A stretch of 39,891 nucleotides of DNA from Gaiellaceae bacterium (GCA_036276675.1 DASUOK010000096.1:1-39891), one strand, 5' to 3'. Shown: positions 4,505-37,516, counted from the first letter of the stretch. Notes: a model not told the origin generated them from the letters alone. Numbers and translations: made by a program.

Positions 4505-4574
4505 ACTCTACCCCGATTCGTCGAATAGGAGCGATTAGCTCTCCTTATCCGCTAGCCCGGGCCGATGGTAGGAT
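4505..4574. promoter_or_regulatory. Divergent tauE-like/cysH control region with two outward-facing -10 elements
   Basis: On the minus strand, TAGAGT (plus 4505-4510) lies 6 nt before GTG 4498. On the plus strand, TAGGAT (4569-4574) lies 7 nt before GTG 4582. The region between is the most AT-rich stretch nearby. Confidence 0.3.
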
Positions 4575-21802: not shown

Positions 21803-23614
21803 CTAGCTGCGCCGGTTCGCCGGCTTCTTCGGCTGCTTCTTCGGCACCGGCTTGGCGCGGATCAGCCGGAACGGCCTGCTCGCCACCTCGGTGACGCCGA
21901 GCGCGCTCGCGGCCCGGAAGCGGAGCACGTAGGTGCCGCCGTAGGCGAAGAGGCGGCCGCCCCTCGTCGTCCCGTTCCAGCGCACGAGGTAGCGGCCCGC
22001 CTTCCGGACGCGCTGGGTGGCGATCGTGGCGACCCGGACGCCGGAGCGGGTCTCGACGGTGACCCTCAGGCGTGCTGGCCGCGTCACGTTGACCCCGGCC
22101 TGCATGAACTGCTTGCCGCGAACCCGCGCGACGATGCGGTTGCGCGAGAGCGCGACGTGGCCGAGCGTGTTGTCGACCCGGAAGCGCTCCCGGATCGTCG
22201 AGGTGCGGCCCAGGTCGTCGGTCGCGGACACGTCGAGCTGCCAGCGGCCCTCCGCAGGGGCGGGGACCTCCGCGTTCGGATCGGCGGGCGCGGGCGGGAA
22301 CGCGACCGGATACGTGCCCGGCTCGCGCGCGATCGTCTCCGTGAAGGCGACGCCACCGCCCGGCGCCGTCAGCGTCGCCGTGACGTTCGACGGGCGGACG
22401 ACCTTGTACGAGAGCTCCTGCGTCTCGTCGACGCCGTCGCCGTTCGGCGAGACCACGGCTTTCGGGGTGGGCGTGTGGACGCCGTAGTACATGAGCTGGA
22501 GGGACGTCGCGACGGCGCGTTCACCGGCCGGGTCGGAGGGGCGGTTCAGCACGGTGCCGTCGAAGGCCAGCGTGGTGGAGCCGCCGGCGTCGAGGGCGGA
22601 CGCGGTCACGGCGCCCAGCCGCACCATCGTCTGGGCGAGCTCGAAGTTCGTCATCCCGACGCTGTAGCCGGGGCGACGGCCGTCGGTGGCGACGAGCAGC
22701 ACGCGGCCGTTCGGGAGCTGACCGACGGCGGTGCGCGGGTTGCGCGGCAGGAGCTGGTTCGGCTCGAAGGCCTCGAGCGAACGGAAGACCGGGGCCCCGC
22801 CGCGGACGATCACCGGGCCGCCGCCGATCGCCTGCGAGACCTCCCGCCACTCCGGCCGGAGGATGAGCCGCAGCGCGACGCTGATCCCGATCGGCGCCTC
22901 CTCCGCGAGCTTCTGACCCGCCGTGCCGCGGGCGACGAGCACGGCGCCGCCGGCCGGGATCGGCGTGCCGCCGCCGGTCGTCAGGTGCACGACCGGGCCG
23001 ACGAGATCGGTGTTGGGCGCTGCGGGCGGGAACGGGGCGATCACGGCCTCGACCGCGCCGGCCTGGGCTGGTGTCGTCGCCCCGTAGCTCGGCGTGAACA
23101 GGGAGATCCCGTTCGGCCCCGGCAGCTGGTTCACGTCGTTCAGCGAGCGGCGCTGGCCCAGCCCCTTCCACGTGCCGAAGAACTCGACCCGGCGGACGTC
23201 CAGCGTCCCCTGCGGCGTGATCCCCAGGCTGGAGCGATCGCCGTACGGAGGACTGTCGACGACGCCGTCGCGCAGCAGGACGCCACTGGGCCGCCCGCTG
23301 GAGAAGTTGTAGAAGTCGCCGTTGACGCCCACCATCGTCGCCTGTGCGGACAGCCGCTTCTGCATCGCCGTGACCCGCTCGAGCCCCTGGATGCGCTCGT
23401 TCGAGAGCACCGGCCGCAGCTCGTAGAGCCCCGTCGGCCGCGGCCCCGTGACGACGTGCAGCGCCACCGGCCCGTGCGGGGTGAACTGGACGGCACGCAT
23501 GTAGCTGACGCCCGGCATGAGCGCCTTCGTCGACGCGGCCGCAGCCGGCGAGGCGAGCGCCAGCGTGGCGACTCCACAGATGAGCAGCTTGCGCAGCACG
23601 ACCCCGGCCGACAC
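21803..23614 (-). CDS. Phosphodiester glycosidase (NAGPA/DUF2233) family protein with C-terminal Ig-like repeats
   Basis: Motifs GVNGDFYN and ATDGRRPGYSVGMTNFELAQTMVRLGAVTASALDAGGSTT. The C-terminal repeats resemble FlgD-Ig. The signal or anchor is LLICGVATLALASPAAAAS. The start is set at GTG 23614 (GGAG 9 nt upstream); GTG 23599 is also possible. Confidence 0.75.
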   Translation of the reverse strand: MSAGVVLRKLLICGVATLALASPAAAASTKALMPGVSYMRAVQFTPHGPVALHVVTGPRPTGLYELRPVLSNERIQGLERVTAMQKRLSAQATMVGVNGDFYNFSSGRPSGVLLRDGVVDSPPYGDRSSLGITPQGTLDVRRVEFFGTWKGLGQRRSLNDVNQLPGPNGISLFTPSYGATTPAQAGAVEAVIAPFPPAAPNTDLVGPVVHLTTGGGTPIPAGGAVLVARGTAGQKLAEEAPIGISVALRLILRPEWREVSQAIGGGPVIVRGGAPVFRSLEAFEPNQLLPRNPRTAVGQLPNGRVLLVATDGRRPGYSVGMTNFELAQTMVRLGAVTASALDAGGSTTLAFDGTVLNRPSDPAGERAVATSLQLMYYGVHTPTPKAVVSPNGDGVDETQELSYKVVRPSNVTATLTAPGGGVAFTETIAREPGTYPVAFPPAPADPNAEVPAPAEGRWQLDVSATDDLGRTSTIRERFRVDNTLGHVALSRNRIVARVRGKQFMQAGVNVTRPARLRVTVETRSGVRVATIATQRVRKAGRYLVRWNGTTRGGRLFAYGGTYVLRFRAASALGVTEVASRPFRLIRAKPVPKKQPKKPANRRS

Positions 23615-23688
23615 TACCGAAAGCTCCGGTGGCCCTTTGCAGGGTTTACGAATCCCGTACACGGCTGCCGCAGGGGGGTCGCGACCGC

Positions 23689-23694
23689 TAGGTT
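23689..23694 (+). promoter_or_regulatory. -10-like TAGGTT, 6 nt upstream of GTG 23701 (leaderless-type)
   Basis: Read directly from the sequence. It follows the same TANNNT-N6-start geometry seen at other operon heads in this window. Confidence 0.3.
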
Positions 23695-23700
23695 CCACCC

Positions 23701-25050
23701 GTGAGCTCCACGGTCTCCGGCACGCGCACCGAGCTCGTCGAAGGGCTGATGGCCGCGTTCCCGCACATCCCGCGCGAGGCCGTGCTGAAGGAGGACCTGC
23801 TCCGCACCGGCATCGACTTCGACACCTCCGCGCTGACGGAGAACCTCGACGGCGAGGTGAAGCCGAAGTCGTACTTCATCTTCTCCTTCGACCAGAAGCC
23901 GCTCGCGCAGCTCGGCGAGGCCGCGCGCCGGCGGCCGCCGGAGGAGATCGCCCTCACGGGCGGCCCGTACGAGCTGCGCCGCACGATCGTCTCCGTGCGC
24001 GTCAACCCCGGCTCGCCCTACCACATCACGCGCGGCGAGACGGGTGAGCTCCGGCTCTCGCTGGAGGGCCGCGAGATCGCGGACGTCGGCCTGCCGCCGA
24101 TGCCCGAGTACTACCGGCACACGCTCGAGAACGGCAAGACGGTGCTGGAGACGGCGCCGACGATCCAGTGGGGCTACCTGATCTACCTGACCGTGCTGCG
24201 CCTGTGCCAGTACTTCGGCGCCAAGGAGGAGTGCGGCTTCTGCGACATCAACCACAACTGGCGCCAGCACAAGCGCGAGGGCCGCCCCTACACGGGCGTG
24301 AAGCCGGTCGCGGACGTGCTCGAGGCGCTGGCGCTGATCGACCGCTACGACACGGCGGCGGTGAGCAAGGCGTACACGCTCACCGGCGGCTCCGTGACGA
24401 GCACGGTCGACGGGCTCGCGGAGGCCGACTTCTACGGCCGCTACGCGCAGGCGATCGAGGAGCGCTTCCCCAACCGGTGGATCGGCAAGGTCGTCGCGCA
24501 GGCGCTGCCGAAGGCCGACGTGCAGCGCTACAAGGACTACGGGATCACCATCTACCACCCGAACTACGAGGTCTGGGACAAGCGGCTCTTCGAGCTGATC
24601 TCCCCGGGCAAGCAGCGCTACGTCGGCCGCGAGGAGTGGCACCGGCGGATCTTCGACGCGGCCGATGTCTTCGGCGCCCGCTACGTGATCCCGAACTTCG
24701 TCGCCGGCGTCGAGCTGGCGAAGCCGTTCGGCTTCAGGACGATCGACGAGGCGATCGCGAGCACGACGGAGGGGCTCGACTTCTTCATGGGCCGCGGCAT
24801 CACGCCACGCTTCACCACCTGGTGCCCCGAGCCGACGACGCCGCTCGGCCGCGACAACCCCGACGGCGCGCCGCTCGAGTACCACATCCGACTGCTGGAG
24901 GCCTACCGCGAGACGCTGGAGCGTCACGGGCTCAAGCCGCCACCCGGCTACGGCGTCGCGGGCGCCGGCAACGCGGTCTTCTCGGTCAGCTCCTTCATGG
25001 ACACGCTGGCGCCCGAGGTGGTCATCGTGGAGGAGGCGGTGCCGTCGTGA
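23701..25050 (+). CDS. Radical-SAM-like TIM-barrel protein with a non-canonical C-x8-C-x2-C motif and an N-terminal domain of about 165 aa
   Basis: Cys169, Cys178 and Cys181 lie in LRLCQYFGAKEECGFCD (nt 24205-24243). Barrel-like strands follow (YTLTGGS, TIYHPNYEVWD, NFVAGVE). High GC3. The GTG start and the stop overlap the next gene as GTGA. Confidence 0.6.
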   Translation: MSSTVSGTRTELVEGLMAAFPHIPREAVLKEDLLRTGIDFDTSALTENLDGEVKPKSYFIFSFDQKPLAQLGEAARRRPPEEIALTGGPYELRRTIVSVRVNPGSPYHITRGETGELRLSLEGREIADVGLPPMPEYYRHTLENGKTVLETAPTIQWGYLIYLTVLRLCQYFGAKEECGFCDINHNWRQHKREGRPYTGVKPVADVLEALALIDRYDTAAVSKAYTLTGGSVTSTVDGLAEADFYGRYAQAIEERFPNRWIGKVVAQALPKADVQRYKDYGITIYHPNYEVWDKRLFELISPGKQRYVGREEWHRRIFDAADVFGARYVIPNFVAGVELAKPFGFRTIDEAIASTTEGLDFFMGRGITPRFTTWCPEPTTPLGRDNPDGAPLEYHIRLLEAYRETLERHGLKPPPGYGVAGAGNAVFSVSSFMDTLAPEVVIVEEAVPS

Positions 25051-26093
25051 GCGGCCGCCTCACGGTCGACGAGGCGACCGTCCTCTGGCACGAGGCGAGC
25101 GACGAGGAGCTGCAGCGGCTGGCGCAGGAGGTGCGGAACCGCTGGCACGAGCCCGACCGCGCCACGTACATGGTGATGCGGATCATCAACTACACGAACG
25201 TCTGCGTCGCGCAGTGCGACTACTGCGCGTTCTACGTGCTGCCCAACCAGGAGGGCGGCTACGTGCTCTCGCGGGACGAGGTGTTCGCGAAGATCGACGA
25301 GCTGGTGGAGCTCGGCGGCGACCTCGTCGGCTTCAACGGCGGCTTCAACCCGCGCCTGCCGCTCGACTACTACGCCGACCTCTTCGCCGCCGTGCGCGAG
25401 CGCTACGGCGACCGGGTCGAGTTCTACGCGCTCACGATCGCCGAGTTCGTCTACCTCGCCGACCGCGCCGGCCTCAGCCACGCCGAGGCGGCGGTCAGGC
25501 TGCGGGACGCCGGCGTGCACTGGATCACCGGCGGCGGCAGCGAGATCCTCACCGAGGGCTTCCGCTCCCGGCACGCGAAGTTCAAGTACACGGTGCGCGA
25601 GTACTTCGAGGCGCAGCGCGCGATCGTGGAGAGCGGGATGAAGACGACCGCGACGATGGTGATCGGCTTCGACGAGACACTCGAGGAACGCCTCGAGCAC
25701 CTGCAGCGCACGCGCGACTTCCAGGACGCCTGCCTCGCCGACGGCTACGACGGCCTCTTCTCGTTCCTGTGCTGGACGTACAAGCCGTACGGCACCGCGC
25801 TCGGCGGCCGCGAGATCTCTCCGCGCGAGTACTGGCGGCACATGGCGCTCTCGCGGATCTTCCTCGACAACGTCAAGCACTTCCGCACCTCGGTGCTGAC
25901 GCAGAACGAGGAGGCCTTCCGCGCCCTCGACTACGGCGCCGATGACTTCGACCTGCCGATCGAGGACGAGGTGACGCAGAAGGCCGGCGCGCGGATCGAG
26001 CTCGACCTCGAGGCGCTGCTGGCGGTGCCGCGCCGGCTCGGCTACCGCGTCGAGTACCGCCGGGCCGAGCGGCCCGCCGCCCTCGCCTCGTAG
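25047..26093 (+). CDS. CofH/MqnC/MqnE-family radical SAM enzyme (futalosine-pathway type, MqnC-like)
   Basis: Canonical NYTNVCVAQCDYCAF (CX3CX2C), then GGGSEIL, ATMVIGFDET and GADDFD...EDEVTQKAGA. GTG 25047 is in frame with track ORF 24168..26093. The subfamily assignment (MqnC versus MqnE) cannot be resolved by eye. Confidence 0.8.
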   Translation: MSGRLTVDEATVLWHEASDEELQRLAQEVRNRWHEPDRATYMVMRIINYTNVCVAQCDYCAFYVLPNQEGGYVLSRDEVFAKIDELVELGGDLVGFNGGFNPRLPLDYYADLFAAVRERYGDRVEFYALTIAEFVYLADRAGLSHAEAAVRLRDAGVHWITGGGSEILTEGFRSRHAKFKYTVREYFEAQRAIVESGMKTTATMVIGFDETLEERLEHLQRTRDFQDACLADGYDGLFSFLCWTYKPYGTALGGREISPREYWRHMALSRIFLDNVKHFRTSVLTQNEEAFRALDYGADDFDLPIEDEVTQKAGARIELDLEALLAVPRRLGYRVEYRRAERPAALAS

Positions 26094-26864
26094 CTAGGCG
26101 CCGACCGGCTGCTTCTGGACGAACCGCAGCTCCGGCACCTGCTCGAGCTCGCCGACGTCGCGGGCCATCTCGAGGAAGGTGTAGAGGCCGGCGCGCTCGC
26201 GCGGGCCGAACGAGTAGCGCAGCTTCTCGAAGTAGCGGGCGAGGTAGCCGGCCGGATAGCCATAGCGGGCGCTCGCCTCGTGCGCGAGCACCTCCGGCTC
26301 GGCGCGGGCCAGCCGCACCGAGGCGACGAGGGCGTGCTCGAGCTCGCCGAGCCCGGCGACGACGGGCTCCGGAGCCGCCCACACGGCGAACACCATCGGC
26401 AGACCGGTCCGCTCGAGCCAGAGGCGGCCGAGGTCGTAGTGCGGCGTCGGGTCCTCGAACGCGCTGCGGAGCGCCGCGTCGCCGATCAGGAGCTTCGCGT
26501 CCGCACCCGCCGCGTCGTGTGGCAGATGCTCGGCCTGGGGCAGCAGCACCTTCGTCAGCACCACGGAGGTGGCGCTCTCGGGCGTGACGGCGACGGAGCG
26601 GATCTGCGGGAACGGCAGCCGCGAGACGAGCTGGATCGACTCGACCGCGCCCTCGGAGGAGACGCACAGGCGCGGCAGCAGCCGCAGCGCACCCGCATGG
26701 CGTGCGTACTCGATCGAGGAGATGGGCGCGATGTCGAGCTGACCGTCGAGCAGCATCCGGTTGAGCTCGGTCGGGACGCCGCTCACCTCCTCCACCTCGA
26801 CGTTCAGCCGGTGGAACACCGGCGCCATGTTCACGTACGAGATGCGGCCCAACCGAATGGCCAT
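26094..26864 (-). CDS. mqnA: Chorismate dehydratase (futalosine pathway, VitK2_biosynth family)
   Basis: Motifs LGRISYVNMAPVFH, LDGQLDIAPISSIEY and MVFAVWAA. The start codon directly follows the upstream stop. Confidence 0.85.
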   Translation of the reverse strand: MAIRLGRISYVNMAPVFHRLNVEVEEVSGVPTELNRMLLDGQLDIAPISSIEYARHAGALRLLPRLCVSSEGAVESIQLVSRLPFPQIRSVAVTPESATSVVLTKVLLPQAEHLPHDAAGADAKLLIGDAALRSAFEDPTPHYDLGRLWLERTGLPMVFAVWAAPEPVVAGLGELEHALVASVRLARAEPEVLAHEASARYGYPAGYLARYFEKLRYSFGPRERAGLYTFLEMARDVGELEQVPELRFVQKQPVGA

Positions 26865-27764
26865 TCAGCTCCTCCTGTCCACGACTGCCTCTGCCAGTGC
26901 CTCGAGCTCGAGCCGGTGGGCGCCGCCGTCGAGGCTCGCACGCGCCCGGTCAGCGTAACCGCGCGCGACCTCCAGCGAGCGCTCGAGCGCGCCCGTGGCG
27001 GCGACACGGACGAGGACGCCGGCCATCGGGCCGCCCGCGAGCGCCGCGCGCACCGCCTCGTCCTCGCGGGCGGCGAGCAGCAGCGGCAGTGTGGGCGTGC
27101 CCTCGCGCAGGTCGGTGCCGGCGAGCTTGCCGGTCTCCGACGCCTCACCGGCGCAGTCGAGCACGTCGTCGGCGATCTGGAACGCGATCCCCAGGGCGAG
27201 GCCGTAGCGCCCGAGCCGCTCGTCGCGGGAGCCGAGCAGGCACGCCGCTTCGAAGAGCTTCCCCGTCTTCAGCGCGATCCGCTCCAGGTAATCGTCCACG
27301 GAGGTCTCCGGACGGTGCCGCTGCCGCCGCTGGAGCGCCTCGCCGCGGACGAGCGCGAGGCAGGCGTCGGTGAGGATGCGCACCCCGTCCAGGTCGCCCG
27401 CCTCCGCGAGGACGCCGAAGGCACGGGCAAACAGGTAGTCGCCGGTCGCCTTGGCGGCGTCGTCGCCGTGGGCGGCCCAGGCGGTGGCGCGCCCGCGGCG
27501 CAGGCGGGCGCCGTCGATCAGGTCGTCGTGGACGAGGGTGGCGGTGTGGACGAGCTCGATCGCGACGCTCGCCCGCAGCGCCTGCTCGCGGTCGTCGGCG
27601 ACGAGGTGGACGAGCAGGGGCCGCAGCCGCTTGCCGCCGGCACCGACCGCCTCGGCGCCCACCTGCTCGACGAGCCCTGGGACGCGCGAGACGGCGTCGA
27701 GCAGCCGCTCCTCGAGCTCGTCGAGGTACGGGCGCGCCTCCGTGTAGACGGCCTCGGTCATCAT
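26865..27764 (-). CDS. Long-chain trans-polyprenyl diphosphate synthase (hepta/octaprenyl type)
   Basis: This is the C-terminal 299 aa of track ORF 26865..28541. It carries two aspartate-rich motifs (LVHDDLIDG and IADDVLD) and GKRLRP. ATGA overlap with the menG stop. Confidence 0.9.
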   Translation of the reverse strand: MMTEAVYTEARPYLDELEERLLDAVSRVPGLVEQVGAEAVGAGGKRLRPLLVHLVADDREQALRASVAIELVHTATLVHDDLIDGARLRRGRATAWAAHGDDAAKATGDYLFARAFGVLAEAGDLDGVRILTDACLALVRGEALQRRQRHRPETSVDDYLERIALKTGKLFEAACLLGSRDERLGRYGLALGIAFQIADDVLDCAGEASETGKLAGTDLREGTPTLPLLLAAREDEAVRAALAGGPMAGVLVRVAATGALERSLEVARGYADRARASLDGGAHRLELEALAEAVVDRRS

Positions 27765-28444
27765 CGGCGTGTCCCCGTGTGCAGGGCGACGATCCCGCCC
27801 GCGAGCAGCCGGTACGAGACCTCGGCGAAGCCGTGGGCCTCGACGAGGCGCGCGAGCTCCTGCGGGCCCGGGAAGCGCCGCACGCTCGCCGGCAGGTAGG
27901 TGTAGGCCTTCCCGCCCGGCAGCAGCTTGCCGGCGAGCGGGATCAGCACGTCGAACCAGAGCTTGTAGAACGGCTTCAGGAGGCCGCGCGGCTTCGTGAT
28001 CTCGAGGATCGCGAGCCGGCCGCCGGGGCGCAGGACCCGCGCGAGCTCGGCGATCCCACGGTCGAGATCCTCGACATTGCGGACGCCGAAGCCGACGGTC
28101 GCGGCATCGAACGAGGCGTCCTCGAACGGCAGCGCGAGCAGGTCGCCGCGCACCCATTCGAGCTCCGGCCCCTTGCGGCGCGCACGCTCGAGCATCGGCT
28201 CGGAGAAGTCGAGCCCGACGACGTCCGCGCCGGCGTCGCGCGCGGCGAGCGCGAGGTCGCCGGTGCCGCAGCACGCGTCGAGCACGCGGTCGCCCGGCCG
28301 CACGGCGAGCCGCACCGCCAGCCGGCGCCAGCGCTGATCGAGGCCGGCCGTCATCACGCGGTTCATCAGGTCGTAGACGGGCGCGATCCGGTCGAACATC
28401 GTGCGCACGCCCTCGGCCGGCAGCGTGCCGGACCTGTGCGTCAC
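27761..28444 (-). CDS. menG: Demethylmenaquinone/ubiquinone C-methyltransferase (UbiE/MenG family)
   Basis: Motifs MFDRIAPVYDLMN, LDACCGTGDL, FGVRNVED and LRPGGRLAILE. GTGA overlap with the ubiX stop. Confidence 0.9.
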   Translation of the reverse strand: MTHRSGTLPAEGVRTMFDRIAPVYDLMNRVMTAGLDQRWRRLAVRLAVRPGDRVLDACCGTGDLALAARDAGADVVGLDFSEPMLERARRKGPELEWVRGDLLALPFEDASFDAATVGFGVRNVEDLDRGIAELARVLRPGGRLAILEITKPRGLLKPFYKLWFDVLIPLAGKLLPGGKAYTYLPASVRRFPGPQELARLVEAHGFAEVSYRLLAGGIVALHTGTRR

Positions 28445-29058
28445 GACTGCCCCCACCGCGCCACGAGCGTGTTCTCGAGGCCGAGCTGGTCGAGGATCCG
28501 GGCGACCACGAACCGGACCAGATCGTCCACCGTCTCCGCACCGTGGTAGAAGCCCGGGGCGGCGAAGAGGATCGTCGCGCCCGCCTGCCGCAGCGTCGTC
28601 AGCCCGGCGAGGTGGATCGCCGACAACGGCGTCTCCCGCGGGACGAGCACGAGCTTCCGCTCCTCCTTGAGGGCCACGGAGGCGGCGCGGTGGATCAGAT
28701 TCGCCATCGCCCCGGCCGCGACCGTGCCGACCGTCGACATCGAGCAGGGGCAGATCACGTACGCGTCGACCTTCGCCGAGCCCGAGGCGTAGGGGCTCTT
28801 GTAGTCGGCGATGCCGTAGACGGTCACGTTCCGCGCGTCGCCGACGAGCCGCTCGAGCACCTCGTCGCGCGCGAGCGAGGGATCGTCGTAGAGCTCGGTG
28901 GCGAGCACCTCGATCCCCGCCGCGGACGCCGTCAGCCCCACCTCGCAGCCGGCGTCCGAGAGCGCGTGCAGGAGCCTGGCGGCGTATGGCGCGCCCGACG
29001 CGCCGGTGACGCCGAGGAACACCTTCATGGGACGCTCGCCCGGCGCCGGGCGCGCCAC
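28441..29058 (-). CDS. ubiX: Flavin prenyltransferase UbiX (prenyl-FMN synthase)
   Basis: Motifs GVTGASGAPYA, VICPCSMSTV and LVLVPRETP. GTG 29058 directly follows the qcrC stop; ATG 29028 (MKVFLGVTG) is an alternative start. Confidence 0.9.
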   Translation of the reverse strand: MARPAPGERPMKVFLGVTGASGAPYAARLLHALSDAGCEVGLTASAAGIEVLATELYDDPSLARDEVLERLVGDARNVTVYGIADYKSPYASGSAKVDAYVICPCSMSTVGTVAAGAMANLIHRAASVALKEERKLVLVPRETPLSAIHLAGLTTLRQAGATILFAAPGFYHGAETVDDLVRFVVARILDQLGLENTLVARWGQS

Positions 29059-29892
29059 TTACTCTTCCGGGCCCTTGGACGCGTCGAGGAAGGTCGCGAT
29101 CGCCGTCAACTGCTCGTCGTCGAGGCTGCCGCCGAACTCCTCGCCGTACGCGGGCATCACGGGGTTGCCGAAGTCCGCCGGGTTGGCGACGTAGCTCTTG
29201 AAGAAGTCGATGCCGCGGTCGCCCGCCCCGATCGCGCTCAGCTCCGGGGCGCCGAGGTTCTGCGAGCCGATCCCGAGGTAGACGTGGCACTGGGCGCAAC
29301 CTGTCTCCGCGAAGAGCTGCGCGCCCTGGACTGCGACCTCGTTGTCGGCGAAGCCCTGACGTTCCGCCCACTCCGGCACGGCCTCGACCAGCTCGCTGCC
29401 GAGGGCCTCCTCCGCGGTCGCGCCCTTCCACGTGAGCACGCCCATGGCGAGCACGACGAGGATCACCGTCACGATCGCGACGGGCCGCCGCAGCAGCCGG
29501 CGCTCGCGGCGGAGGTCGATGAACGGCAGCACCAGCAGCAGGATCAGCAGGATCGTCGGGATGCCGACGGTGCCGAGGATCACCGACTCGGGCCACTTGA
29601 AGATCCTGAGCAGGTAGAAGAGGAAGAAGAAGTACCAGTCGGGCCGCGGGATGAAATCGGTGGTGCCCGGGTCGGCTTCCTCCGTCCAGTGCGGGCCGAG
29701 CACACCGGCCTCGGTGCCGTCCGCGTCGAAGTACCAGATGCACGCGAGCGCGACGATCACGATCACGACGACGAAGCTCATGATCGTGTCGTGGAACATC
29801 GCGTGCGGGAAGAACGCCTTCCCCCGCTTCTCGACGTCCTCCTTGTAGCGCTGGTGCGCCTCGCGCCGCTCGACGATGCGCCTAGACGCCAT
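29059..29892 (-). CDS. qcrC: Menaquinol:cytochrome c reductase subunit IV fused to a mono-haem cytochrome c (Bacillus QcrC-type)
   Basis: The N-terminal three TM helices carry the PetD-like PDWYFFFLFYLLR motif, and the C-terminal domain carries CAQCH. The ATG overlaps qcrB by 11 nt. Confidence 0.85.
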   Translation of the reverse strand: MASRRIVERREAHQRYKEDVEKRGKAFFPHAMFHDTIMSFVVVIVIVALACIWYFDADGTEAGVLGPHWTEEADPGTTDFIPRPDWYFFFLFYLLRIFKWPESVILGTVGIPTILLILLLVLPFIDLRRERRLLRRPVAIVTVILVVLAMGVLTWKGATAEEALGSELVEAVPEWAERQGFADNEVAVQGAQLFAETGCAQCHVYLGIGSQNLGAPELSAIGAGDRGIDFFKSYVANPADFGNPVMPAYGEEFGGSLDDEQLTAIATFLDASKGPEE

Positions 29893-30688
29893 CCGAGCCT
29901 CCGCGCCCGCCGTGCCGCAGCAGGCCCTCGCGACCCTCGGCCGGCTTGGCGACGACCGTGCCCTCGCCCGCCGCGTTCTTCGTCCACGGGTTCGGCGTCA
30001 CGCCGAGGCGGATCACGAGGTGGAGGTGCAGGATGATCAGGCCGATGATCGCGCCCGGGACCACGAGCATGTGCAGGGAGTAGAACTTGCTGAGGGTGTC
30101 TTCCCCGATCGCCGCACCCCCCTGAAGGAACTGCGCGATGAACGGCCCGAGGAAGGGGGCGGTGCCGTTGATGTTGATGCCGACCACGGTGGCCCAGTAC
30201 GCGGTCTGGTCCCACGGGAGCAGGTAGCCGGTGAAGCCCTCGAGCATGCCGAGCGCCAGCAGGAGCACGCCGACGATCCAGTTCAGCTCGCGCGGGTACT
30301 TGTAGGCGCCGAACAGGAAGACGCGCGCCATGTGGAAGAACATGAGGATGATGAAGACGCTCGCGCCCCAGCGGTGCATGCCGCGCACGAGCCAGCCGAG
30401 CGTGAGGTCGTTGGTGATGTACTGGACGGACTCGTAGGCCGAGTCGGGATCCGGCTTGTAGTAGAAGGCCAAGATCACGCCGGTGATCGCCTGCACGAGG
30501 AAGGCCGTGAGGGTGGCCGAGCCGAGCGTGTGGTACCAGCCGATGTCGCGCGGCACCTTCCGGAAGAGGAAGTACTTGACGGCGCCGACGAGCCCGGAGC
30601 GCTCTTCGAGCCAGTCGAGCGGGTAGAGCGCCGCCGCCTCGATCTGCGCGCGGCGTCCCGACTTCCCGCGAGGCGGCGCTGTGGCCAC
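29882..30688 (-). CDS. qcrB: Cytochrome b6-type (split, four-helix) cytochrome b subunit
   Basis: This is the C-terminal 268 aa of track ORF 29882..31564. The helix B His pair (MHRWGASVFIILMFFH) has 13 residues between the His, and the helix D pair (HMLVVPGAIIGLIILH) has 14. Also LPWDQ. The GTG shares 1 nt with the qcrA TAG. Confidence 0.9.
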   Translation of the reverse strand: MATAPPRGKSGRRAQIEAAALYPLDWLEERSGLVGAVKYFLFRKVPRDIGWYHTLGSATLTAFLVQAITGVILAFYYKPDPDSAYESVQYITNDLTLGWLVRGMHRWGASVFIILMFFHMARVFLFGAYKYPRELNWIVGVLLLALGMLEGFTGYLLPWDQTAYWATVVGININGTAPFLGPFIAQFLQGGAAIGEDTLSKFYSLHMLVVPGAIIGLIILHLHLVIRLGVTPNPWTKNAAGEGTVVAKPAEGREGLLRHGGRGGSDGV

Positions 30689-31641
30689 TAGCCCGGGACC
30701 TCGATCGGGTACAGCCAGGCGGACGGGCCGTCCACGTGCACGCCCGGGCTCGTGTGGCCGTACTTCGTGATCCGCGCGCGCGCTCCCGTGCCCTCGACCT
30801 CCCCGACGCTGTAGAAATCGCCGAGCCAGAGGTTGCCGTTGCGGATCGAGAACTCGCAGCGGTCGAGCGCGCGGACGGGCGGCCCGGCGGTGCGGTTGCC
30901 CTCGGTGTCGTACTGGCCGCCGTGGCAGGGACAGCCGAAGCCGGACGGCTGGGTCGGAACCAGCCGGATGGCGCCGCCCTCGCCGACCGTCTGCGCCGCG
31001 TCCTCGTCGACGGGGCCGTTCGGCTGCACCGGGCAGCCGAGGTGGACGCAGCGGGAGAAGAGGATCGTGAAGCTCGAGACCGGGCCTTCCGGCGTGTCCG
31101 CGACGCCGTTGTTGCGCACGAAGACGGTGCGGCGGCTGACCTCGCCGATCTCCGGGTCCTCGAGGTAGGTGGCGATCACGAACTCCCCCCGCGGGAAGTT
31201 CTCGACCGGGCCGAGGTCGACCGACTGCTCGTCCTGGTTCGTGAAGGAGGGCAGCACGGCGAAGCCGAGCACCGGAACGGTGATGATGCCGCCGATCGCG
31301 GCGCCGACGCCGATCGTCGCGGCCGAGAGGAACGTGCTGCGCGGATAGGCCGCGACCTCCTCGTCGTCGGCGACGGGCACGGCGCCCGCCGCGGCGGGCG
31401 GCGCGCCGGTCTCGCGTACGGCCCGCGTCTCCGGCTCCACGTGGGGCGCCGGCTCGCGCACGCCTCTCGTGACGTCGCGGATCCAGAGGAACCCGAAAAC
31501 GATCGCCAGGACCGCGCCGACGGCCGCCACGGGCAGGCTGACGACGAGCCCGAGCAGGACGCACGCGATGCCGATGGCGAAGCCGATCGGCCAGAGGCTC
31601 GGCGGCGGCAGATGCGGCGTTTCGTTGTCGTGCATGCTCAA
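30688..31641 (-). CDS. qcrA: Rieske 2Fe-2S subunit of the menaquinol:cytochrome c reductase
   Basis: Box I CVHLGC and box II CPCHGG, with three predicted N-terminal TM helices. The start is either TTG 31641 (GGAGGAG 8 nt upstream) or ATG 31635. Confidence 0.85.
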   Translation of the reverse strand: MSMHDNETPHLPPPSLWPIGFAIGIACVLLGLVVSLPVAAVGAVLAIVFGFLWIRDVTRGVREPAPHVEPETRAVRETGAPPAAAGAVPVADDEEVAAYPRSTFLSAATIGVGAAIGGIITVPVLGFAVLPSFTNQDEQSVDLGPVENFPRGEFVIATYLEDPEIGEVSRRTVFVRNNGVADTPEGPVSSFTILFSRCVHLGCPVQPNGPVDEDAAQTVGEGGAIRLVPTQPSGFGCPCHGGQYDTEGNRTAGPPVRALDRCEFSIRNGNLWLGDFYSVGEVEGTGARARITKYGHTSPGVHVDGPSAWLYPIEVPG

Positions 31642-31684: not shown

Positions 31685-33193
31685 TCAACGACGTGTCAGT
31701 CGTCGCAAGCCTCGCCGGCCCGCGCCATTCTGCACCACTCCGCCGGACGCGTGCGCCGATATCCCGTACTCGGCCCAGCGCTCGTCGACGAGCGCCTTCA
31801 CCTCGGGCGTCATCTCGATCTCGTCGGGCCACTCGCGCGCGCCCTCGAGCGGCCCCTTCGCGGTCGCGTCGATGCCGATCTTCCCGCCGACGAACTGGAG
31901 TGTGGGCGCGTGGTCGAGGTGGTCGAGCGGCCCCTCGGCGATGACGACGTCCCGCTTGGGGTCGACGTTCGCACCGACGTAGAAGAAGACCTCCTCGTAG
32001 TCGTGCACGTCGACGTGCTCGTCCACGACGACGACGGCCTTGGAGAGGCTGAGCATGCCCAGCCCCCAGATCGCGTGCATCACCTTGCGCGCGTGGCCGG
32101 GAAAGGCCTTGCGGATCGAGACGATCACGCAGTTGTGGAACGCACCGGCCACGGGGAGGTCGTAGTCGACGATCTCCGGCACGGTCATGCGCACCGCGGG
32201 CAGGAAGATCCGCTCGGTCGCCTTCCCGAGCCAGGCATCCTCCTGGGGTGGCTTCCCGACGACGATTGACGGATAGATCGCGTCGCGGCGCATCGTCAGC
32301 GCCGTGACGTGGAAGACGGGGAACGGCTCGGCCGGCGTGTAGTAGCCCGTGTGGTCGCCGAAGGGGCCCTCGAGGCCGAGCTCGTCCTTCTCGATGTAGC
32401 CCTCGAGCGCGATCTCGGCGTGCGCCGGCACCTCCAGGTCGTTCGTCTTGCAGCGCACCATCTCCACGGGCGTGCCGCGGAAGAAGCCCGCCAGCATCAG
32501 CTCGCCGATGTGCTTCGGCAGCGGCGCGCTCGCCGAGTAGGCGGTGACGGGGTCGAGCCCGAGCGCGACCGCGACGGGGATGCGGCCGTCGGTCGCGAGC
32601 CAGTCGGCCCGCCCGTCCTTGTGGATCTGCCAGTGCATGTAGGTCGTGTTGCGATCGATCACCTGCATCCGGTACATGCCGACGTTGCGTGTGCCGGCGC
32701 GCGGGTCGCGCGTGATCACGGCGGGGAGCGTGATGAACGGCGCGGGATCGCCGGGCCAGCAGCGCTGCACCGGGAGCAGGCCGAGGTCGACGTCGTCGCC
32801 GGTCAGCACCACCTCCTGCACGGGGCCGCTGCGCACCGAGCGCGGCCCGGAGCCGGCGATCGACTTCAACTTCTGCAAGCCGCGGACCTTGTCCAGCAGC
32901 CCCTGCGGCGGGGTCAGCTCGAGCACGTCGGCGACGCGCTCGGCGAGCTCGTCGAGGCGCTCGACGCCGAAGCCGAGCGCCATGCGGCGCTCGGTACCGA
33001 ACTGGTTGATCAACAGCGGGTGCCGCGACCCCTTGGGGTTCTCGAACAGGAGCGCAGGCCCGCCCGCCTTGACCGTGCGGTCGACGATCTCCGTGATCTC
33101 GAGATCCGGGTCGACCTCGGCGGCGACGCGGACGAGCTCGCCCTCGCGCTCCAGGAGCCGGATCCACTCGCGGAGGTCCGTCGGAGGTGCCAT
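31685..33193 (-). CDS. ubiD: UbiD-family prenyl-FMN-dependent decarboxylase (menaquinone late-step type)
   Basis: This is the C-terminal 502 aa of track ORF 31685..33760. Motifs LLFENPKG, NVGMYRMQV, EGPFGDHTGYY and AIWG. The ATG shares 1 nt with the upstream TGA (TGATG). Confidence 0.9.
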   Translation of the reverse strand: MAPPTDLREWIRLLEREGELVRVAAEVDPDLEITEIVDRTVKAGGPALLFENPKGSRHPLLINQFGTERRMALGFGVERLDELAERVADVLELTPPQGLLDKVRGLQKLKSIAGSGPRSVRSGPVQEVVLTGDDVDLGLLPVQRCWPGDPAPFITLPAVITRDPRAGTRNVGMYRMQVIDRNTTYMHWQIHKDGRADWLATDGRIPVAVALGLDPVTAYSASAPLPKHIGELMLAGFFRGTPVEMVRCKTNDLEVPAHAEIALEGYIEKDELGLEGPFGDHTGYYTPAEPFPVFHVTALTMRRDAIYPSIVVGKPPQEDAWLGKATERIFLPAVRMTVPEIVDYDLPVAGAFHNCVIVSIRKAFPGHARKVMHAIWGLGMLSLSKAVVVVDEHVDVHDYEEVFFYVGANVDPKRDVVIAEGPLDHLDHAPTLQFVGGKIGIDATAKGPLEGAREWPDEIEMTPEVKALVDERWAEYGISAHASGGVVQNGAGRRGLRRLTRR

Positions 33194-35634
33194 CACCCCG
33201 AGTCTACGGAGAGGCCGTAGGCGACCGCTTCGCCGAGCGTCAGCGCCCGTCCCCGCTGGACGCCGTCGCTCGGGAGTGCGCCGAGCCGGGCCGCGAACGA
33301 CTCCCGCTGCCGCTCCCAGACGCCAAGCCGGGCCCGGCGCTCCTCGGCCTCGACGGCGCCCCACAGCACCGCCGCCCGATCCGGCTCGCCCGACGCGTAC
33401 GCGAGGGTCGCAAGGGTGGCGAGGCCCCAAACCGTGTTCTGCCGGTCGCCGAGCTCGTGGCAGAGCGCGAGCGCTCGCCGTGCGAGCTGCACCGCCTGGT
33501 CGGTCCGGCCGAGAGACTCTGCGGCCTCCGCGGCGTTCCCGGTCATCACCGCTCCCCACCAGACGAAGCCGATCGCTTCGGCGCGGCGCGCGCTCTCGAG
33601 CAGGAGCTCGAGCGCCGCGGCGTCGTTTCCGCTGAGCGACTCGACCCTGGCGAGGGTTCCCGGCAGCTGCGCCTCGAGGCGGGGCGCTTGGACCCGGGCG
33701 AGGCTCTGCTCGACCTCGAGGAGGATCGCACGGGCCCGATCGGGATCTCCGAGCCGACACGCGACCGACGCCTGCCGGTGGAGCAGTCTCGCGGCGCCGG
33801 CCTCGTCCCCGAGCTCCCGAAAGCAGGCGAGCGACCTGGAGTAGGCGTCTGCGGCCCCGACGAACTCACCGGTGATCTGGCTGGCGCCTCCGAGGCCGCG
33901 GAACGCCCGAGCGCGGAGAGCCGTCGGGACGCCCGGACGCTCGAGGAGGGATGCGAAGATGCGTGCGCCCTCGAAGGGGCTCGTCGTCTCCCAGTAGCTC
34001 TCGAGCTCGACGGCGAGCGAGAGCGCGGTCTCCGCGTCGTCCTCGCGCTCCGACCAGTCGAGCGCGGCCCGGATGTTCGCCCCCTCGGGCCGGACGAGCT
34101 CGTGCCGCTGCTCCAGGAAGGCGGAGTCCTCGGACAGTCCGGATCGGCGCGCGAGCTCGAGGAACCAGCTCACGTGCGCCCGCCGGAGCGCCTCCTCCTC
34201 CCCGGACGCGGAGAGGCGCTCGAGCGCGAGCTCCCGGATCGTCTCGAGCATCCAGAAGCGCTCCTCGTCCCGAACCCGGAGCAGGCTCTTCTCGACGAGC
34301 GACTGCAGATCGTCGAGGTCGGCGTCGCAGATCTCCTCGGCCGCGGCGAGCGTGCAGCCGCCGGAGAACACGGCCAGCCGGGCGAACAGGCGCTGCTCGT
34401 CCGGCTGGAGGAGGTCGTGCGACCACTCGATCGTCGCGCGCAGCGTCTGCTGGCGCGACTCGGCGTCGCGGCCCCCGCGGAGCACGTCGAGCCGGCTGCC
34501 GAGCCGCTCCAGGAGCTGCCGGCTCGAGAGCATCACGGTCCGTGCGGCGGCGAGCTCGAGCGCGAGGGGCAGGTCGTCGAGGCGGTCGCAGAGCTGGTCG
34601 ACTGCCTCGTCCGGCGCGAAGTCCGGTCGGACGGCCCGCGCTCTCGCCGCAAAGAGCTCCCGAGCCTCGGCACGGTCGAGCACCGGGACGGGATACACGT
34701 GCTCGCCCTCGATTCGAAGCCGCTCGCGGCTCGTCACCAGCAGGTCGAGGTTCGGGCAGTCGAGGAGGAGCGACGAGAGCTTCGGAGCCGCGGCGACCAC
34801 GTGCTCGAAGTTGTCCAGCAGGAGGAGGAGCCGACGGTCGCCGATCGCGACCGCGAGCTCGCCGGGCGCTCCGAGTGCGCGGCTCGCTGCGTCGAGAACG
34901 GACGCGGGATCGACGACCGCGGCGAGCGGCACCCACCACACGCCGTGGGGGTACTCGTCCGCCGCGGCGCCTGCCGCCTGGAACGCCAGCCGGGTCTTGC
35001 CGCTCCCACCTGGGCCGGTGAGCGTCAGCAGCCGCGTCTCTCCGAGAAGGGTCGCAATCTCGCCGAGCTCGCGCTCCCGGCCGAGAAAGACGGTCGCCGG
35101 CACGGGCAAGTTCGTCTGGAAGAGCGTCTTCAGCGGCGGAAACTCGTCGCTCCCGAGCTGGAAGACGCGCTCTGCGGCCTCGAGATCCTTGAAGCGGTGC
35201 TCGCCGAGGTCGCGGAGCTCGATCCCGTCTGCGAGCGCGGCCGCCGAAGCCGACACGAGCACCTGGGTGCCATGGCCGGCCGCGGCGATCCGCGCCGCCC
35301 GGTGGACGTCGACCCCGACGTAGCCCTCCTCGGCCACGAACGGCGTCCCCGTATGGACGCCGACGCGGACGCGGATCGGCCCGTCGGCCAGCGCCTCCGT
35401 CAGGTCTGCCGCAGCGGCCAGCGCGCCCGATGCGGTCGGGAACGCGACGAAGAAGGCGTCGCCCTGCGTGTCCACCTCGACGCCGTCGTGCGCCGCGAAC
35501 GCGGCGCGCAGCGCCCGGCGGTGCTCCGCGAGGGCGCCCGCATACGCCTCCGGCCCGAGCTCCTGCAGCAGCCGCGTCGAGCCCTCCACATCCGTGAACA
35601 GGAACGTGACCGTGCCGGACGGCAGCGCGCGCAC
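33193..35634 (-). CDS. Class III nucleotide-cyclase domain fused to a STAND/NB-ARC-like ATPase and TPR repeats
   Basis: N-terminal cyclase motifs VTFLFTDVEGSTRL, GDAFFVAF, VRVGVHTG and VHRAARI. Walker A GPGGSGKT and Walker B LLLLDNFEH. The C-terminal half is helical-repeat (TPR-like). No HTH is visible at the C-terminus. Confidence 0.85.
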   Translation of the reverse strand: MRALPSGTVTFLFTDVEGSTRLLQELGPEAYAGALAEHRRALRAAFAAHDGVEVDTQGDAFFVAFPTASGALAAAADLTEALADGPIRVRVGVHTGTPFVAEEGYVGVDVHRAARIAAAGHGTQVLVSASAAALADGIELRDLGEHRFKDLEAAERVFQLGSDEFPPLKTLFQTNLPVPATVFLGRERELGEIATLLGETRLLTLTGPGGSGKTRLAFQAAGAAADEYPHGVWWVPLAAVVDPASVLDAASRALGAPGELAVAIGDRRLLLLLDNFEHVVAAAPKLSSLLLDCPNLDLLVTSRERLRIEGEHVYPVPVLDRAEARELFAARARAVRPDFAPDEAVDQLCDRLDDLPLALELAAARTVMLSSRQLLERLGSRLDVLRGGRDAESRQQTLRATIEWSHDLLQPDEQRLFARLAVFSGGCTLAAAEEICDADLDDLQSLVEKSLLRVRDEERFWMLETIRELALERLSASGEEEALRRAHVSWFLELARRSGLSEDSAFLEQRHELVRPEGANIRAALDWSEREDDAETALSLAVELESYWETTSPFEGARIFASLLERPGVPTALRARAFRGLGGASQITGEFVGAADAYSRSLACFRELGDEAGAARLLHRQASVACRLGDPDRARAILLEVEQSLARVQAPRLEAQLPGTLARVESLSGNDAAALELLLESARRAEAIGFVWWGAVMTGNAAEAAESLGRTDQAVQLARRALALCHELGDRQNTVWGLATLATLAYASGEPDRAAVLWGAVEAEERRARLGVWERQRESFAARLGALPSDGVQRGRALTLGEAVAYGLSVDSG

Positions 35635-35817: not shown

Positions 35818-36276
35818 TTAATCGACGCGCGCGGCGTGCGCGACCAGGGCGCGCTCGACCGCGTCGGCCTCGCGGGCGCCGCCGAGGCGACGCGCCAGCT
35901 CGACCCAGGCCTCCCCGTCGCCCGGACGTCCGTCGGCCCGCAGAGCCGCGCACGTGGAGATCAGCTCCGCGAAGGCGGCGACGGCCTCGAGCTCGCCGAG
36001 CGCGGCGATGCGCGAGAGCCCGTGGGCGTAGAGGTAGTCGCCGGTGAGGAGGGCGACGTCGGCGTCGGGCGGAGCGAACAGGCGCGGGCGCCCGTAGTGG
36101 AGGAGATAGCCCTCGTAGATCGTCTCCAGGCCCAGTGCATACCGCTCGTCGACGAGCGGCGAGAACACCGGCTCGCGGTCGACGTCGTCCCGCAGTGACT
36201 CCCCCCACAGCGGGCTCTCGGCGGCCGCCTCGGCCGCGATCGTGCCCCAGAGGTCAGTCGCGGAAGAAGTCGCCAA
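35818..36276 (-). CDS. Hypothetical 152-aa protein with a polyprenyl-synthase-like LLTGDYLYAHGL segment but no DDxxD motifs
   Basis: High GC3 across the ORF. The only usable start is TTG 36276, which overlaps the hemL end by 23 nt. Confidence 0.55.
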   Translation of the reverse strand: MATSSATDLWGTIAAEAAAESPLWGESLRDDVDREPVFSPLVDERYALGLETIYEGYLLHYGRPRLFAPPDADVALLTGDYLYAHGLSRIAALGELEAVAAFAELISTCAALRADGRPGDGEAWVELARRLGGAREADAVERALVAHAARVD

Positions 36277-37516
36277 CGGCCTCGATGGTGCGGTCGATGT
36301 CCTCGTCGGAGTGCGCGAGCGAGACGAACAGGCACTCGAACTGGGACGGCGCGACGTAGATCCCCGACTCCAGCAGGTGCCGGAAGAGGGCGCCGTAGCG
36401 CTCCGTGTCGGACCTCTCGGCGTCGGCGAAGTCCCGGATCGGGCCGTCGGCGAGGAAGAGGGTCGCCATCGCCCCGACGCGCTGCACGCGGCCGAACGGG
36501 GTGAGCCCCGCCTCGAGGCGCGCGCCCTTCGCCTCCAACTGCTCGTACACGGCCGGCTCGCGCAGACGCCGCAGCACCGAGGTGCCGGCGGCGGTCGCGA
36601 GCGGGTTGCCCGAGAGCGTGCCCGCCTGGTAGACGTCGCCCGCCGGGGCGAGCCGCTCCATCACGTCGGCGCGGCCGCCGAAGGCCGCGGCGGGCAGGCC
36701 GCCGCCGACGATCTTGCCGAGGATCGTCAGGTCGGGGACGACGCCGTAGCGCTCCTGCGCGCCGCCGCGCGCGACGCGGAAGCCCGTGATCACCTCGTCG
36801 AAGACGAGCAGCGCGCCCGACGCGTCGCAGAGCGCCCGCAGCGCCTCGAGGAAGCCGGGCGCCGGAGGGACGACGCCCATGTTGCCGGCCACGGGCTCGA
36901 CCACGATCGCGGCAAGGCCCTCGCCGTAGCGCTCGACGGCGGCCGCCGCTGCGTCGACGTCGTTGTACGCCGAGACGACGGTGTCGCCGGCGACGCCGGT
37001 GGGCACGCCCGGGCTGGCCGGGATGCCGAGCGTCGCGAGCCCGGAGCCGGCGCTCGCGAGCAGCGCGTCCACGTGGCCGTGGTAGCAGCCGGCGAACTTG
37101 AGCACGCGGTCGCGGCGCGTGAAACCGCGGGCGAGCCGGAGCGCGCTCATCGCCGCCTCCGTGCCGGAGGAGACGAGGCGGACGAGCTCGACCGACGGCA
37201 CCGCGTCGACGATCTCGGCGGCGAGCTCGACCTCCGCCTCCGTCGGCGCGCCGAACGTGGTGCCGCGCCGCGCGGCCGCCTCGATCGCGGCGAGCGTCTC
37301 CTCGTCGGCGTGCCCGAAGATCAGCGGGCCCCAGCTCATCACCCAGTCGACGTAGCGCCGGCCGGAGACGTCCTCGAGCAGCGAGCCGCTGCCGCTGCGG
37401 ACGAAGACCGGCTCGTCGAGCCCGACGGTGCGCATCGCGCGCACCGGCGAGTTGACCCCGCCGGGAATCAGCTGCGTCGCCCGCCGCCAGAGCGCGGACC
37501 TCTCGACTAGAGCCAC
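36254..37516 (-). CDS. hemL: Glutamate-1-semialdehyde 2,1-aminomutase
   Basis: Motifs [20 protein letters not shown] and [10 protein letters not shown] (PLP lysine). GTG start overlaps the hemB end by 10 nt. Confidence 0.95.

Follow-up and report, generated by a model that had tools for sequence, protein, structure and literature searches.

A conserved radical-SAM family with a CX8CX2C cluster loop, encoded beside an MqnC-like gene in a Gaiellaceae bacterium, as a candidate for an unrecognised step of the futalosine pathway

Introduction

Many bacteria, among them Helicobacter, Campylobacter, Chlamydia, Streptomyces and large uncultured groups from soil, produce their respiratory quinone by the futalosine pathway. 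Humans and most gut commensals lack this pathway, whose enzymes are studied both as narrow-spectrum drug targets and as genome markers of quinone use. Its genes are typically scattered in genomes, and its steps B, C and D are consecutive. Among the head-group (early) enzymes, MqnE (TIGR03700; PDB 6xi9) is one of the radical S-adenosylmethionine (SAM) enzymes, acts on the product of MqnA and possesses a CX3CX2C motif and a CofH_C domain. Radical-SAM enzymes with an expanded motif include HmdB (CX5CX2C) and the QueE of Burkholderia (CX14CX2C), and these enzymes (HmdB and some QueE) are normal SAM cleavers. Here we describe gene 1 (23701-25050, plus strand) of a 39,891 nucleotide (nt) stretch of DNA from a Gaiellaceae bacterium (GCA_036276675.1 DASUOK010000096.1:1-39891), the whole of which is termed the window. 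Gene 1 encodes a 449 amino acid (aa) variant radical-SAM protein (protein 1) and overlaps gene 2 (25047-26093, plus strand), which encodes an MqnC-like radical-SAM enzyme. Gene 1 is a real, well-conserved radical-SAM variant from a family that is named but functionally blank, and a promising candidate for an as yet unrecognised step of the futalosine pathway, a role that is credible but unproven.

Protein 1 resembles HmdB and QueE in that its three cysteines lie within the β1-α1 loop, the first two separated by inserted residues and CX2C kept intact. These are different families, however, and the HmdB model misses protein 1 and weakly matches only the product of gene 2; an eight-residue spacing of consensus CQY[FW]G..EEC.[FY]C is a feature of the protein 1 family alone. 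MqnE is the proposed functional analogue. Protein 1 differs from MqnE in both its CX8CX2C motif and its extra N-terminal domain, and shows no detectable sequence similarity to it; a shared function would represent non-orthologous displacement rather than family membership.

A named family with an invariant cysteine triad

Gene 1 starts with GTG, and the GC content at its three codon positions (0.65/0.46/0.98) is that of a typical real gene in a window of 72% GC. The preliminary description of this DNA had reported a 449 aa open reading frame (ORF) with a C-x8-C-x2-C motif at nt 24205-24243, and re-derivation of the coordinates, together with the codon bias, agreed with this. The segment LRLCQYFGAKEECGFCD contains Cys169 (nt 24205-24207), Cys178 (24232-24234) and Cys181 (24241-24243), the predicted ligands of a [4Fe-4S] cluster, in a loop directly following strand β1 (residues 160-166). 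Three further motifs that had been pointed out were likewise located in protein 1. TLTGGS (residues 226-231; 24376-24393, plus strand) lies at the end of β2 and is, by position and analogy, the putative counterpart of the 'GGE' SAM-binding motif, with Gly230 invariant and Gly229 nearly invariant. NFVAGVE (residues 332-338; 24694-24714, plus strand) lies on β5 and is by its position the putative counterpart of GxIxGxxE, with Gly336 and Glu338 invariant. The third, IYHPNYEVWD, occupies residues 284-293.

It had been stated that the eight-residue spacing could not be placed in any named family. This did not hold, as protein 1 passes the NCBIfam model NF045502 'variant_rSAM' at 155.6 bits against a cutoff of 125, with residues 27-384 aligned to positions 5-335 of the 357 in the model. 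NF045502 is a 'domain'-type family with the product name 'radical SAM protein' and no assigned function, and the homologues at two loci from other lineages, L139 and L162, also pass it with 171.5 and 183.3 bits. The only other NCBIfam model touching protein 1 is TIGR04043, that of the MSMEG_0568-family radical SAM proteins of a different conserved gene cluster, which matches weakly (23.9 bits against a cutoff of 303.7; 23.9-32.5 bits among family proteins, over residues 92-336). No Pfam match was obtained for protein 1, which falls below the gathering score of PF04055, although some of its homologues reach PF04055 through precomputed or weak matches. The models of the CofH/MqnC/MqnE family and PDB 6xi9 gave no match to protein 1, and a sequence search of the PDB returned noise only (NAP1, E 0.3). 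A full-text search of a literature library found no paper describing this family or its function. The protein predicted as 'MqnZ' by Ravcheev and Thiele (PMC4746308) is a member of the PF01048 phosphorylase family, ruling it out as gene 1.

The family is well populated, with 2,734 matches at 90% clustering and 660 representatives at 50% clustering, and a close relative of protein 1 is present in at least 591 GTDB species genomes. An alignment of 43 full-length homologues (24-76% identity) contains 13 invariant columns, which include Cys169, Cys178, Cys181, Gly230, Pro302-Gly303-Lys304, Gly336, Glu338 and Gly344, and conserved columns of the N-terminal domain are Gly37, Pro80 and Tyr107. The three cysteines are invariant down to 24% identity in this set, within which a CX7CX2C arrangement is possible in one aligned homologue, and are also invariant in 60 closer homologues. 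One further conserved cysteine, Cys375, is confined to the closer clade. The spacing CX8CX2C, not the canonical CX3CX2C, was found in the window protein and in nine of nine lineage representatives, the motif reading CQY[FW]..x..EEC.[FY]C in every lineage checked. Judged from these alignments, the cysteine motif is far beyond chance. Constraint on the variant enzyme is very strong, with 74-91% identity retained across two phyla. One close metagenome homologue (P0001, 550 aa) shows a duplication of approximately 100 residues in the barrel region, probably an artefact of assembly or gene calling.

A predicted radical-SAM core behind a separate N-terminal domain

To the sequence matches is added an AlphaFold2 model of protein 1, built on 60 homologues, with a predicted local distance difference test (pLDDT) score of 90.5 and a predicted template modelling (pTM) score of 0.91. 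The model core consists of a strand (residues 160-166), the cysteine loop and a helix (183-192), followed by five β-α units extending to residue 408. In this way six β-α units are modelled between residues 160 and 408, forming a partial (β-α)6 TIM-barrel core. Among the matches listed by Foldseek against the PDB, essentially all at E below 1e-4 were radical-SAM enzymes, with E values from 3e-7; they included MiaB, HydE, BioB, ThiH, PylB, viperin and MoaA, aligned over approximately 250-265 columns at 12-17% identity. The closest solved folds are those of HydE, BioB, ThiH and MiaB (PDB 3iiz, 1r30, 7pd1 and 7mjx; E 3e-7 to 1e-5). For HydE and BioB the TM-score on the target is 0.5-0.54, and MiaB is the best structural match at 17% identity over the shared core, on par with HydE and BioB. 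These four enzymes lack both the N-terminal domain and the CX8CX2C spacing of protein 1, which itself shows no sign of an auxiliary cluster. The NF045502 match, the modelled core with the cysteine triad in its β1-α1 loop and the Foldseek results agree with the radical-SAM-like character first proposed for the protein. Given this fold, the invariant cysteine triad and the conserved residues that putatively stand for the SAM-binding motifs, a SAM-dependent [4Fe-4S] enzyme is the most likely identity of protein 1.

Preceding the cysteine motif, a separate N-terminal domain had been suggested from the sequence, and it was modelled as a unit of about 160 residues (approximately residues 1-160; 23701-24180, plus strand) composed of two helices and a five-stranded β unit; the domain is conserved family-wide. 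When modelled alone (pLDDT 82) these 160 residues matched no solved fold, the best E value being 0.29, and for this reason no assignment to RNA-binding or to known substrate-binding domains is claimed.

Coupling of gene 1 to an MqnC-like gene

The TGA stop of gene 1 overlaps the GTG start of gene 2 within the tetranucleotide GTGA at 25047-25050, and the last part of gene 1 contains the ribosome-binding site GGAGGAGG, 10-17 nt upstream of this overlap. The product of gene 2 is 348 aa in length, in agreement with 98%-identical homologues, and contains the canonical C53-x3-C57-x2-C60 motif (25203-25226, plus strand) followed by the domain pair PF04055 and PF19288 (CofH_C). The overlap, the CX3CX2C motif and the assignment to the CofH/MqnC/MqnE family had all been noted before, and classification with hidden Markov models (HMMs) now places protein 2 closest to MqnC. 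Its best-scoring model was MqnC TIGR03699, with 305.6 bits against an equivalog cutoff of 428.1. The MqnE model TIGR03700 gave 196.9 bits (cutoff 434.55), which is 109 below the MqnC score, a second MqnE model, NF006276, gave 145.2 (cutoff 560), and the CofH models gave 147.8 and 159.4 bits against cutoffs of 374-426. The sole significant relative in the PDB is MqnE 6xi9 (E 7e-31), and orthologues are named 'radical SAM protein' by NCBI and MqnC by JGI. As it falls below the MqnC, MqnE and CofH equivalog cutoffs alike, gene 2 cannot be called MqnC outright; by its HMM scores it is a divergent member of the MqnC lineage, here termed MqnC-like. It shares with MqnC the PF04055 and PF19288 domains, the canonical motif and a context of mqnA and late-step genes, and differs in scoring 122 bits below the cutoff. 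The group to which gene 2 belongs may represent a sister clade whose substrate has changed.

To place the pair in a wider context, 171 loci in addition to the window were surveyed over 2.33 Mb of flanking sequence, and genome-locus counts were taken over the 80 best loci, at 74-91% identity to protein 1. Orthologues of both genes occur, adjacent to one another, in 62 loci. An MqnC-like gene directly follows the variant enzyme in every Gaiellaceae, Gaiellales or Thermoleophilia locus examined, with an overlap or a gap of 0-20 nt, so the coupling proposed for the window is kept in all of these loci. Within 10 kb, most loci of the Gaiellales type also contain mqnA, a polyprenyl synthase gene, ubiE, ubiX and cytochrome b, and the position of mqnA varies among relatives, being upstream, downstream or up to approximately 7 kb away.

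Outside this lineage the variant enzyme was frequently found alone. Lone loci came from Gemmatimonadales, two complete chromosomes among them, and from Longimicrobium, Streptomyces, Actinoplanes, Plantactinospora, Micromonospora and a pair of unclassified actinomycetes, and in Acidobacteriota-type loci the variant enzyme is mostly alone as well. Clustering of the neighbours at loci without an MqnC-like gene revealed no common partner, the top 'clusters' being antisense ORFs inside the gene itself. Given the lone loci in many lineages, the variant enzyme is autonomous and not an obligate partner of gene 2.

Orthologues of protein 1 from Gaiellales (Actinomycetota) and from Gemmatimonadota are 81-88% identical, and share 73-80% identity with their counterparts in a few Streptomyces and Micromonosporaceae, levels as high as within Gaiellales. 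The loci concerned are L026 and L038 (Gemmatimonadales chromosomes OY969570 and OY970303), L003, L013 and L025 (Longimicrobium) and L062-L083. Such identity suggests recent horizontal transfer between soil bacteria, or else a constraint of unusual strength. An acyl-CoA ligase gene upstream of the variant gene in Micromonosporaceae was considered as MenE, which would have tied the variant enzyme to the classical pathway, and rejected, as its product is a PRK07787 acyl-CoA synthetase (709 bits) that falls far below the cutoffs of the MenE models.

Links to futalosine genes in other lineages

Four informative loci came from a clade that shares 55-62% identity with the window protein and occurs in Acidobacteriota, Planctomycetota and other groups. 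In the operon at L087/L088 the variant enzyme is encoded together with UbiA, 3-deoxy-D-arabino-heptulosonate 7-phosphate (DAHP) synthase, MqnD and an MqnB-like protein, which precede it in this order, and with aroA, aroE, aroK-aroB, aroQ, aroC and UbiE, which follow it. The MqnD of L087 matches TTHA1568 of Thermus (E 6e-50), and the best NCBIfam match of the MqnB-like protein is futalosine hydrolase, at 58.3 bits and below the cutoff of 124.7; the MqnB-like gene and the variant gene overlap through ATGA. A further locus, L089 (79% identity), keeps MqnD, the MqnB-like gene, the variant enzyme and the shikimate core. In L139 (48% GC) the order seen in the window is reversed, with the stop of an MqnC-like gene overlapping the start of the variant gene through ATGA. 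This MqnC-like protein is 59% identical to that of gene 2 and reaches 342.7 bits on TIGR03699, again below the cutoff of 428.1. In L162 (46% GC) only 3 nt separate the end of an MqnA-like VitK2_biosynth gene from the variant gene that follows. The variant enzymes of the four linked lineages are mutually 50-59% identical, all contain CX8CX2C, and are encoded by DNA of 46-72% GC.

By a rough estimate, a random gene adjoins an mqn gene in approximately 0.5% of cases, which would give about 0.5 such loci among the approximately 95 loci from outside Gaiellales. Four distinct loci with an mqn neighbour were observed there, in addition to the Gaiellales lineage. That four lineages place the variant gene directly beside four different futalosine genes well exceeds this rough estimate of chance and supports a role in the pathway. 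Streptomyces, a known futalosine user, is among the carriers of the variant enzyme. Gemmatimonadales, likewise known futalosine users (PMC9426454), carry it too. In total the variant enzyme was found beside mqnA, mqnB-like, mqnC-like and mqnD genes and beside genes for UbiA, UbiE, UbiX and UbiD. Within the 2.33 Mb of flanks, no MqnE-type gene was detected, making MqnE the one head-group enzyme of the pathway never found beside the variant enzyme, and the CofH/MqnC/MqnE-family genes present there were all MqnC-like; gene 2 and its counterpart in L139 both score approximately 100 bits higher on MqnC than on MqnE in both model pairs. The earlier proposal of a two-radical-SAM step in the quinone pathway therefore stands in part, the mqn link being extended to three more lineages while the pairing is not general, as 28 of the 80 genome loci are without it.

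Other recurring neighbours were observed beside the variant gene. In a low-GC lineage, an atypical epimerase-like or extended short-chain dehydrogenase/reductase (SDR)-like protein of 278-290 aa is always encoded immediately upstream (L103:9169-10005, L143:9121-9960, L144, L161:1112-1981 and L171:506-1378), with overlapping ORFs in L103. It matches PDB 3ius (E 1e-11) and no Pfam or NCBIfam model, and may be a lineage-specific partner. At L126:8786-11275, overlapping ORFs encode a UbiE-like methyltransferase, an NADPH-dependent flavin mononucleotide (FMN) reductase and the variant enzyme, a trio that could be a mini-operon supplying reductant and a methylation step.

A proposed role in head-group synthesis and its alternatives

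The reading we favour, tentatively and at somewhat less than even confidence, is that gene 1 encodes an autonomous NF045502 radical-SAM enzyme that functions in the head-group part of futalosine-type menaquinone synthesis, most specifically at the MqnE step. The N-terminal domain of about 160 residues would take a substrate-binding role, Cys169, Cys178 and Cys181 of the β1-α1 loop would bind the [4Fe-4S] cluster, and TGGS and FVAGVE would stand in for the GGE and GxIxGxxE motifs in binding SAM. In Gaiellales, where gene 1 would be co-translated with an MqnC-type cyclase near mqnA and the late-step genes, the enzyme would act in the head-group part of the pathway, supplying an MqnE-type step in which the 5'-deoxyadenosyl radical is added to the 3-enolpyruvyl-benzoate produced by MqnA. 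The resulting nucleoside intermediate would then be handled by the divergent MqnB-like and MqnC-like enzymes encoded nearby, whose sub-threshold scores hint at a modified intermediate. It is above all the catalysed step that we infer here, and the MqnE-type step is favoured given that the variant enzyme is seen with mqnA, mqnB-like, mqnC-like and mqnD genes, never with mqnE, and that the role of cyclase is apparently filled by gene 2.

The NF045502 subfamily might further be a non-orthologous aminofutalosine synthase, or perform an unknown radical step of a variant futalosine route, a proposal we consider unlikely as formulated. Under it, a CX8CX2C enzyme unrelated to MqnE and bearing a new N-terminal domain would couple SAM to the MqnA product, and the sub-threshold MqnB-like and MqnC-like proteins would have co-evolved to process what is formed.

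Several observations weigh against a role in the pathway, or against the particular step. Of the 80 best genome loci, 28 have within 10 kb neither an MqnC-like or mqn gene nor any shared neighbour. Outside the Gaiellales type there are 66 metagenome loci, mostly from the clade of 55-60% identity, and the majority of these likewise contain no mqn neighbour. The commonest neighbours in those 66 loci encode an FmdB zinc ribbon (17 of 66), MutM (12), MoaC (8) and CoaX (6), and neighbours seen at single loci include a class II tRNA synthetase with a CCA-adding enzyme, GatA/GatB and a SpoU methylase. Loci with housekeeping neighbours only fit the scattered layout of mqn genes, but equally allow an unrelated housekeeping role. 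Among the Streptomyces species of the searched collection, only a few turned up with an orthologue of gene 1. Moreover, Streptomyces coelicolor, the model organism of the pathway, has a canonical MqnE (SCO4494), which would make a simple replacement needless there. The variant enzyme is also carried by Micromonosporaceae. Finally, the order MqnD, MqnB-like, variant enzyme in L087 fits an MqnC-type step equally well.

In Table S2 of a genome survey (PMC13386864), Gaiella occulta, for which menaquinone-7 was measured, is flagged as 'inconsistent' with its genome-predicted quinone pathway.

The strongest competitor is a housekeeping radical-SAM enzyme that modifies RNA, a cofactor or a small metabolite and has no link to quinones, the mqn adjacencies being lineage-specific and functionally unshared. 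We regard this as unlikely, though it deserves serious consideration given the lone copies in 28 of 80 genome loci and most of the 66 metagenome loci, which lack any conserved operon, and given neighbours such as the SpoU methylase, the tRNA synthetase and CCA-adding enzyme, GatA/GatB, MutM and MoaC. The low-GC lineage, in which the variant enzyme is paired with the epimerase-like SDR and not with mqn genes, and the tRNA methylthiotransferase MiaB as the best structural match are consistent with it too. The MiaB match, however, reflects a shared core that HydE and BioB match equally well, and the N-terminal domain matches no RNA-binding fold. Direct adjacency to mqn genes in four lineages, in three of them with ORFs that overlap or are spaced by 3 nt, argues against it, being well above the chance rate of about 0.5%, and lone copies are expected of a pathway enzyme too, given that futalosine genes are scattered.

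Alternatively, the variant enzyme could act at or after the MqnB step, as an alternative dehypoxanthinyl-futalosine cyclase or in a new radical step on a ribosyl intermediate, with the MqnC-like neighbour performing an MqnE-type or other reaction. Its position after MqnD and MqnB-like genes in L087 and L089 would then give consecutive steps B, C and D. The adjacent MqnC-like (305.6 and 342.7 against 428.1 bits) and MqnB-like proteins (58.3 and 41.7 against 124.7) hint by their sub-cutoff scores at altered substrates, and the partner in the low-GC lineage resembles a sugar epimerase. We nevertheless hold this to be improbable, as the scores of gene 2 and its L139 counterpart, better on MqnC by about 100 bits, suggest that the role of cyclase is already filled, and the pairing with an MqnA-like gene in L162 favours an early step.

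The chance that the radical-SAM fold is used without cleavage of SAM, as an Fe-S scaffold or lyase-type enzyme, or with cleavage of a different C-S bond as by Dph2, appears slim. The non-canonical spacing of the cluster loop and the missing PF04055 match of the window protein speak for it, but the putative counterparts of GGE and GxIxGxxE are conserved family-wide, PF04055 is reached by some homologues, and the expanded-spacing enzymes HmdB and some QueE cleave SAM normally. Least probable is a two-component synthase of genes 1 and 2 similar to CofG/CofH (FO synthase), with an aromatic product branching off the pathway: gene 2 does belong to the CofH/MqnC/MqnE family and the pair is translationally coupled in two lineages, but the reading was rejected on HMM scores, the CofH models giving 148-159 bits (cutoffs 374-426), well short of what MqnC gives, and the CofG models not matching protein 1, while most lineages have the variant enzyme without a CofH-family neighbour.

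If a step of the futalosine pathway is indeed supplied by gene 1, present predictions of the pathway from genomes are incomplete for Gaiellales and related lineages of soil, and the enzyme would offer new radical-SAM chemistry, or a new solution to the adenosyl addition of MqnE, that is directly testable. With a non-orthologous aminofutalosine synthase, or a variant route, the early futalosine pathway would exist in two versions, the second of them in Gaiellales/Thermoleophilia and in part of the Acidobacteriota-type and other lineages. Regardless of pathway, a well-populated and strictly conserved CX8CX2C class joins the non-canonical cluster loops of radical-SAM enzymes.

Surrounding genes of the window

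The gene mqnA, encoding chorismate dehydratase, lies at 26094-26864 on the minus strand (PF02621, E 2.7e-61, 207.7 bits). Its best PDB matches are MqnA of S. coelicolor (SCO4506, E 2e-26) and of Deinococcus (to 5e-25), and MqnD was absent among the PDB matches listed. Gene 2 had been described as ending directly against mqnA, and the abutting arrangement is as described, with the TAG stop of gene 2 directly followed by the stop of mqnA (CTA on the plus strand) at 26091-26096 and no spacer between them. The two genes are convergent, however, and are thus not co-transcribed. No terminator-like hairpin was found at this junction, a promoter and terminator scan of 23400-26400 found none, and an Rfam scan of the whole window gave no match.

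Beyond mqnA, also on the minus strand, lie late-step genes that the preliminary description had not listed, encoding a polyprenyl diphosphate synthase (26865-27830, start approximate; PF00348, E 8.8e-55), a UbiE/MenG-type quinone C-methyltransferase (27761-28480, start approximate; PF01209, E 2.9e-55) and a UbiX-type flavin prenyltransferase (28441-29058; PF02441, E 2e-39), the last a late-step menaquinone gene. Beyond UbiX are the cytochrome bc genes (cytochrome c, cytochrome b and Rieske; 29059-31641, minus strand), and downstream of these a UbiD-family decarboxylase, a further late-step menaquinone gene (31685-33200, minus strand, start approximate; PF01977, PF20696 and PF20695), in a layout shared with the relative at L002. 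Among the ORFs scanned, the window contains no mqnB, mqnD or second MqnC/E paralogue, as had been stated.

Divergent genes upstream of gene 1 encode a NAGPA-domain protein and DedA, DegT and CapD-type proteins. The longest ORFs of the NAGPA gene (start 23698, minus strand) and of gene 1 (start 23701) are only 2 nt apart. A signal-peptide-like segment in the NAGPA protein suggests a true start approximately 80 nt inside this ORF, in which case the two genes would share a short promoter region (23617-23701); no sigma-70-like site was detected in this intergene.

Elsewhere in the window, 4573-7455 and 9761-10546 contain a sulfate-assimilation block and a ComA homologue. The former includes two proteins with a 3'-phosphoadenosine 5'-phosphosulfate (PAPS) reductase domain, of the CysH and CysD types, and a CysN-type GTPase, and ComA is (2R)-phospho-3-sulfolactate synthase, an enzyme of coenzyme M and sulfolactate metabolism not expected in actinobacterial surroundings. 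The minus strand at 33193-35634, flanked by the quinone/cytochrome bc block and by hemL/hemB (36254-38454), encodes an 813 aa protein that combines an adenylate/guanylate cyclase domain with a STAND-type NTPase and tetratricopeptide (TPR) repeats.

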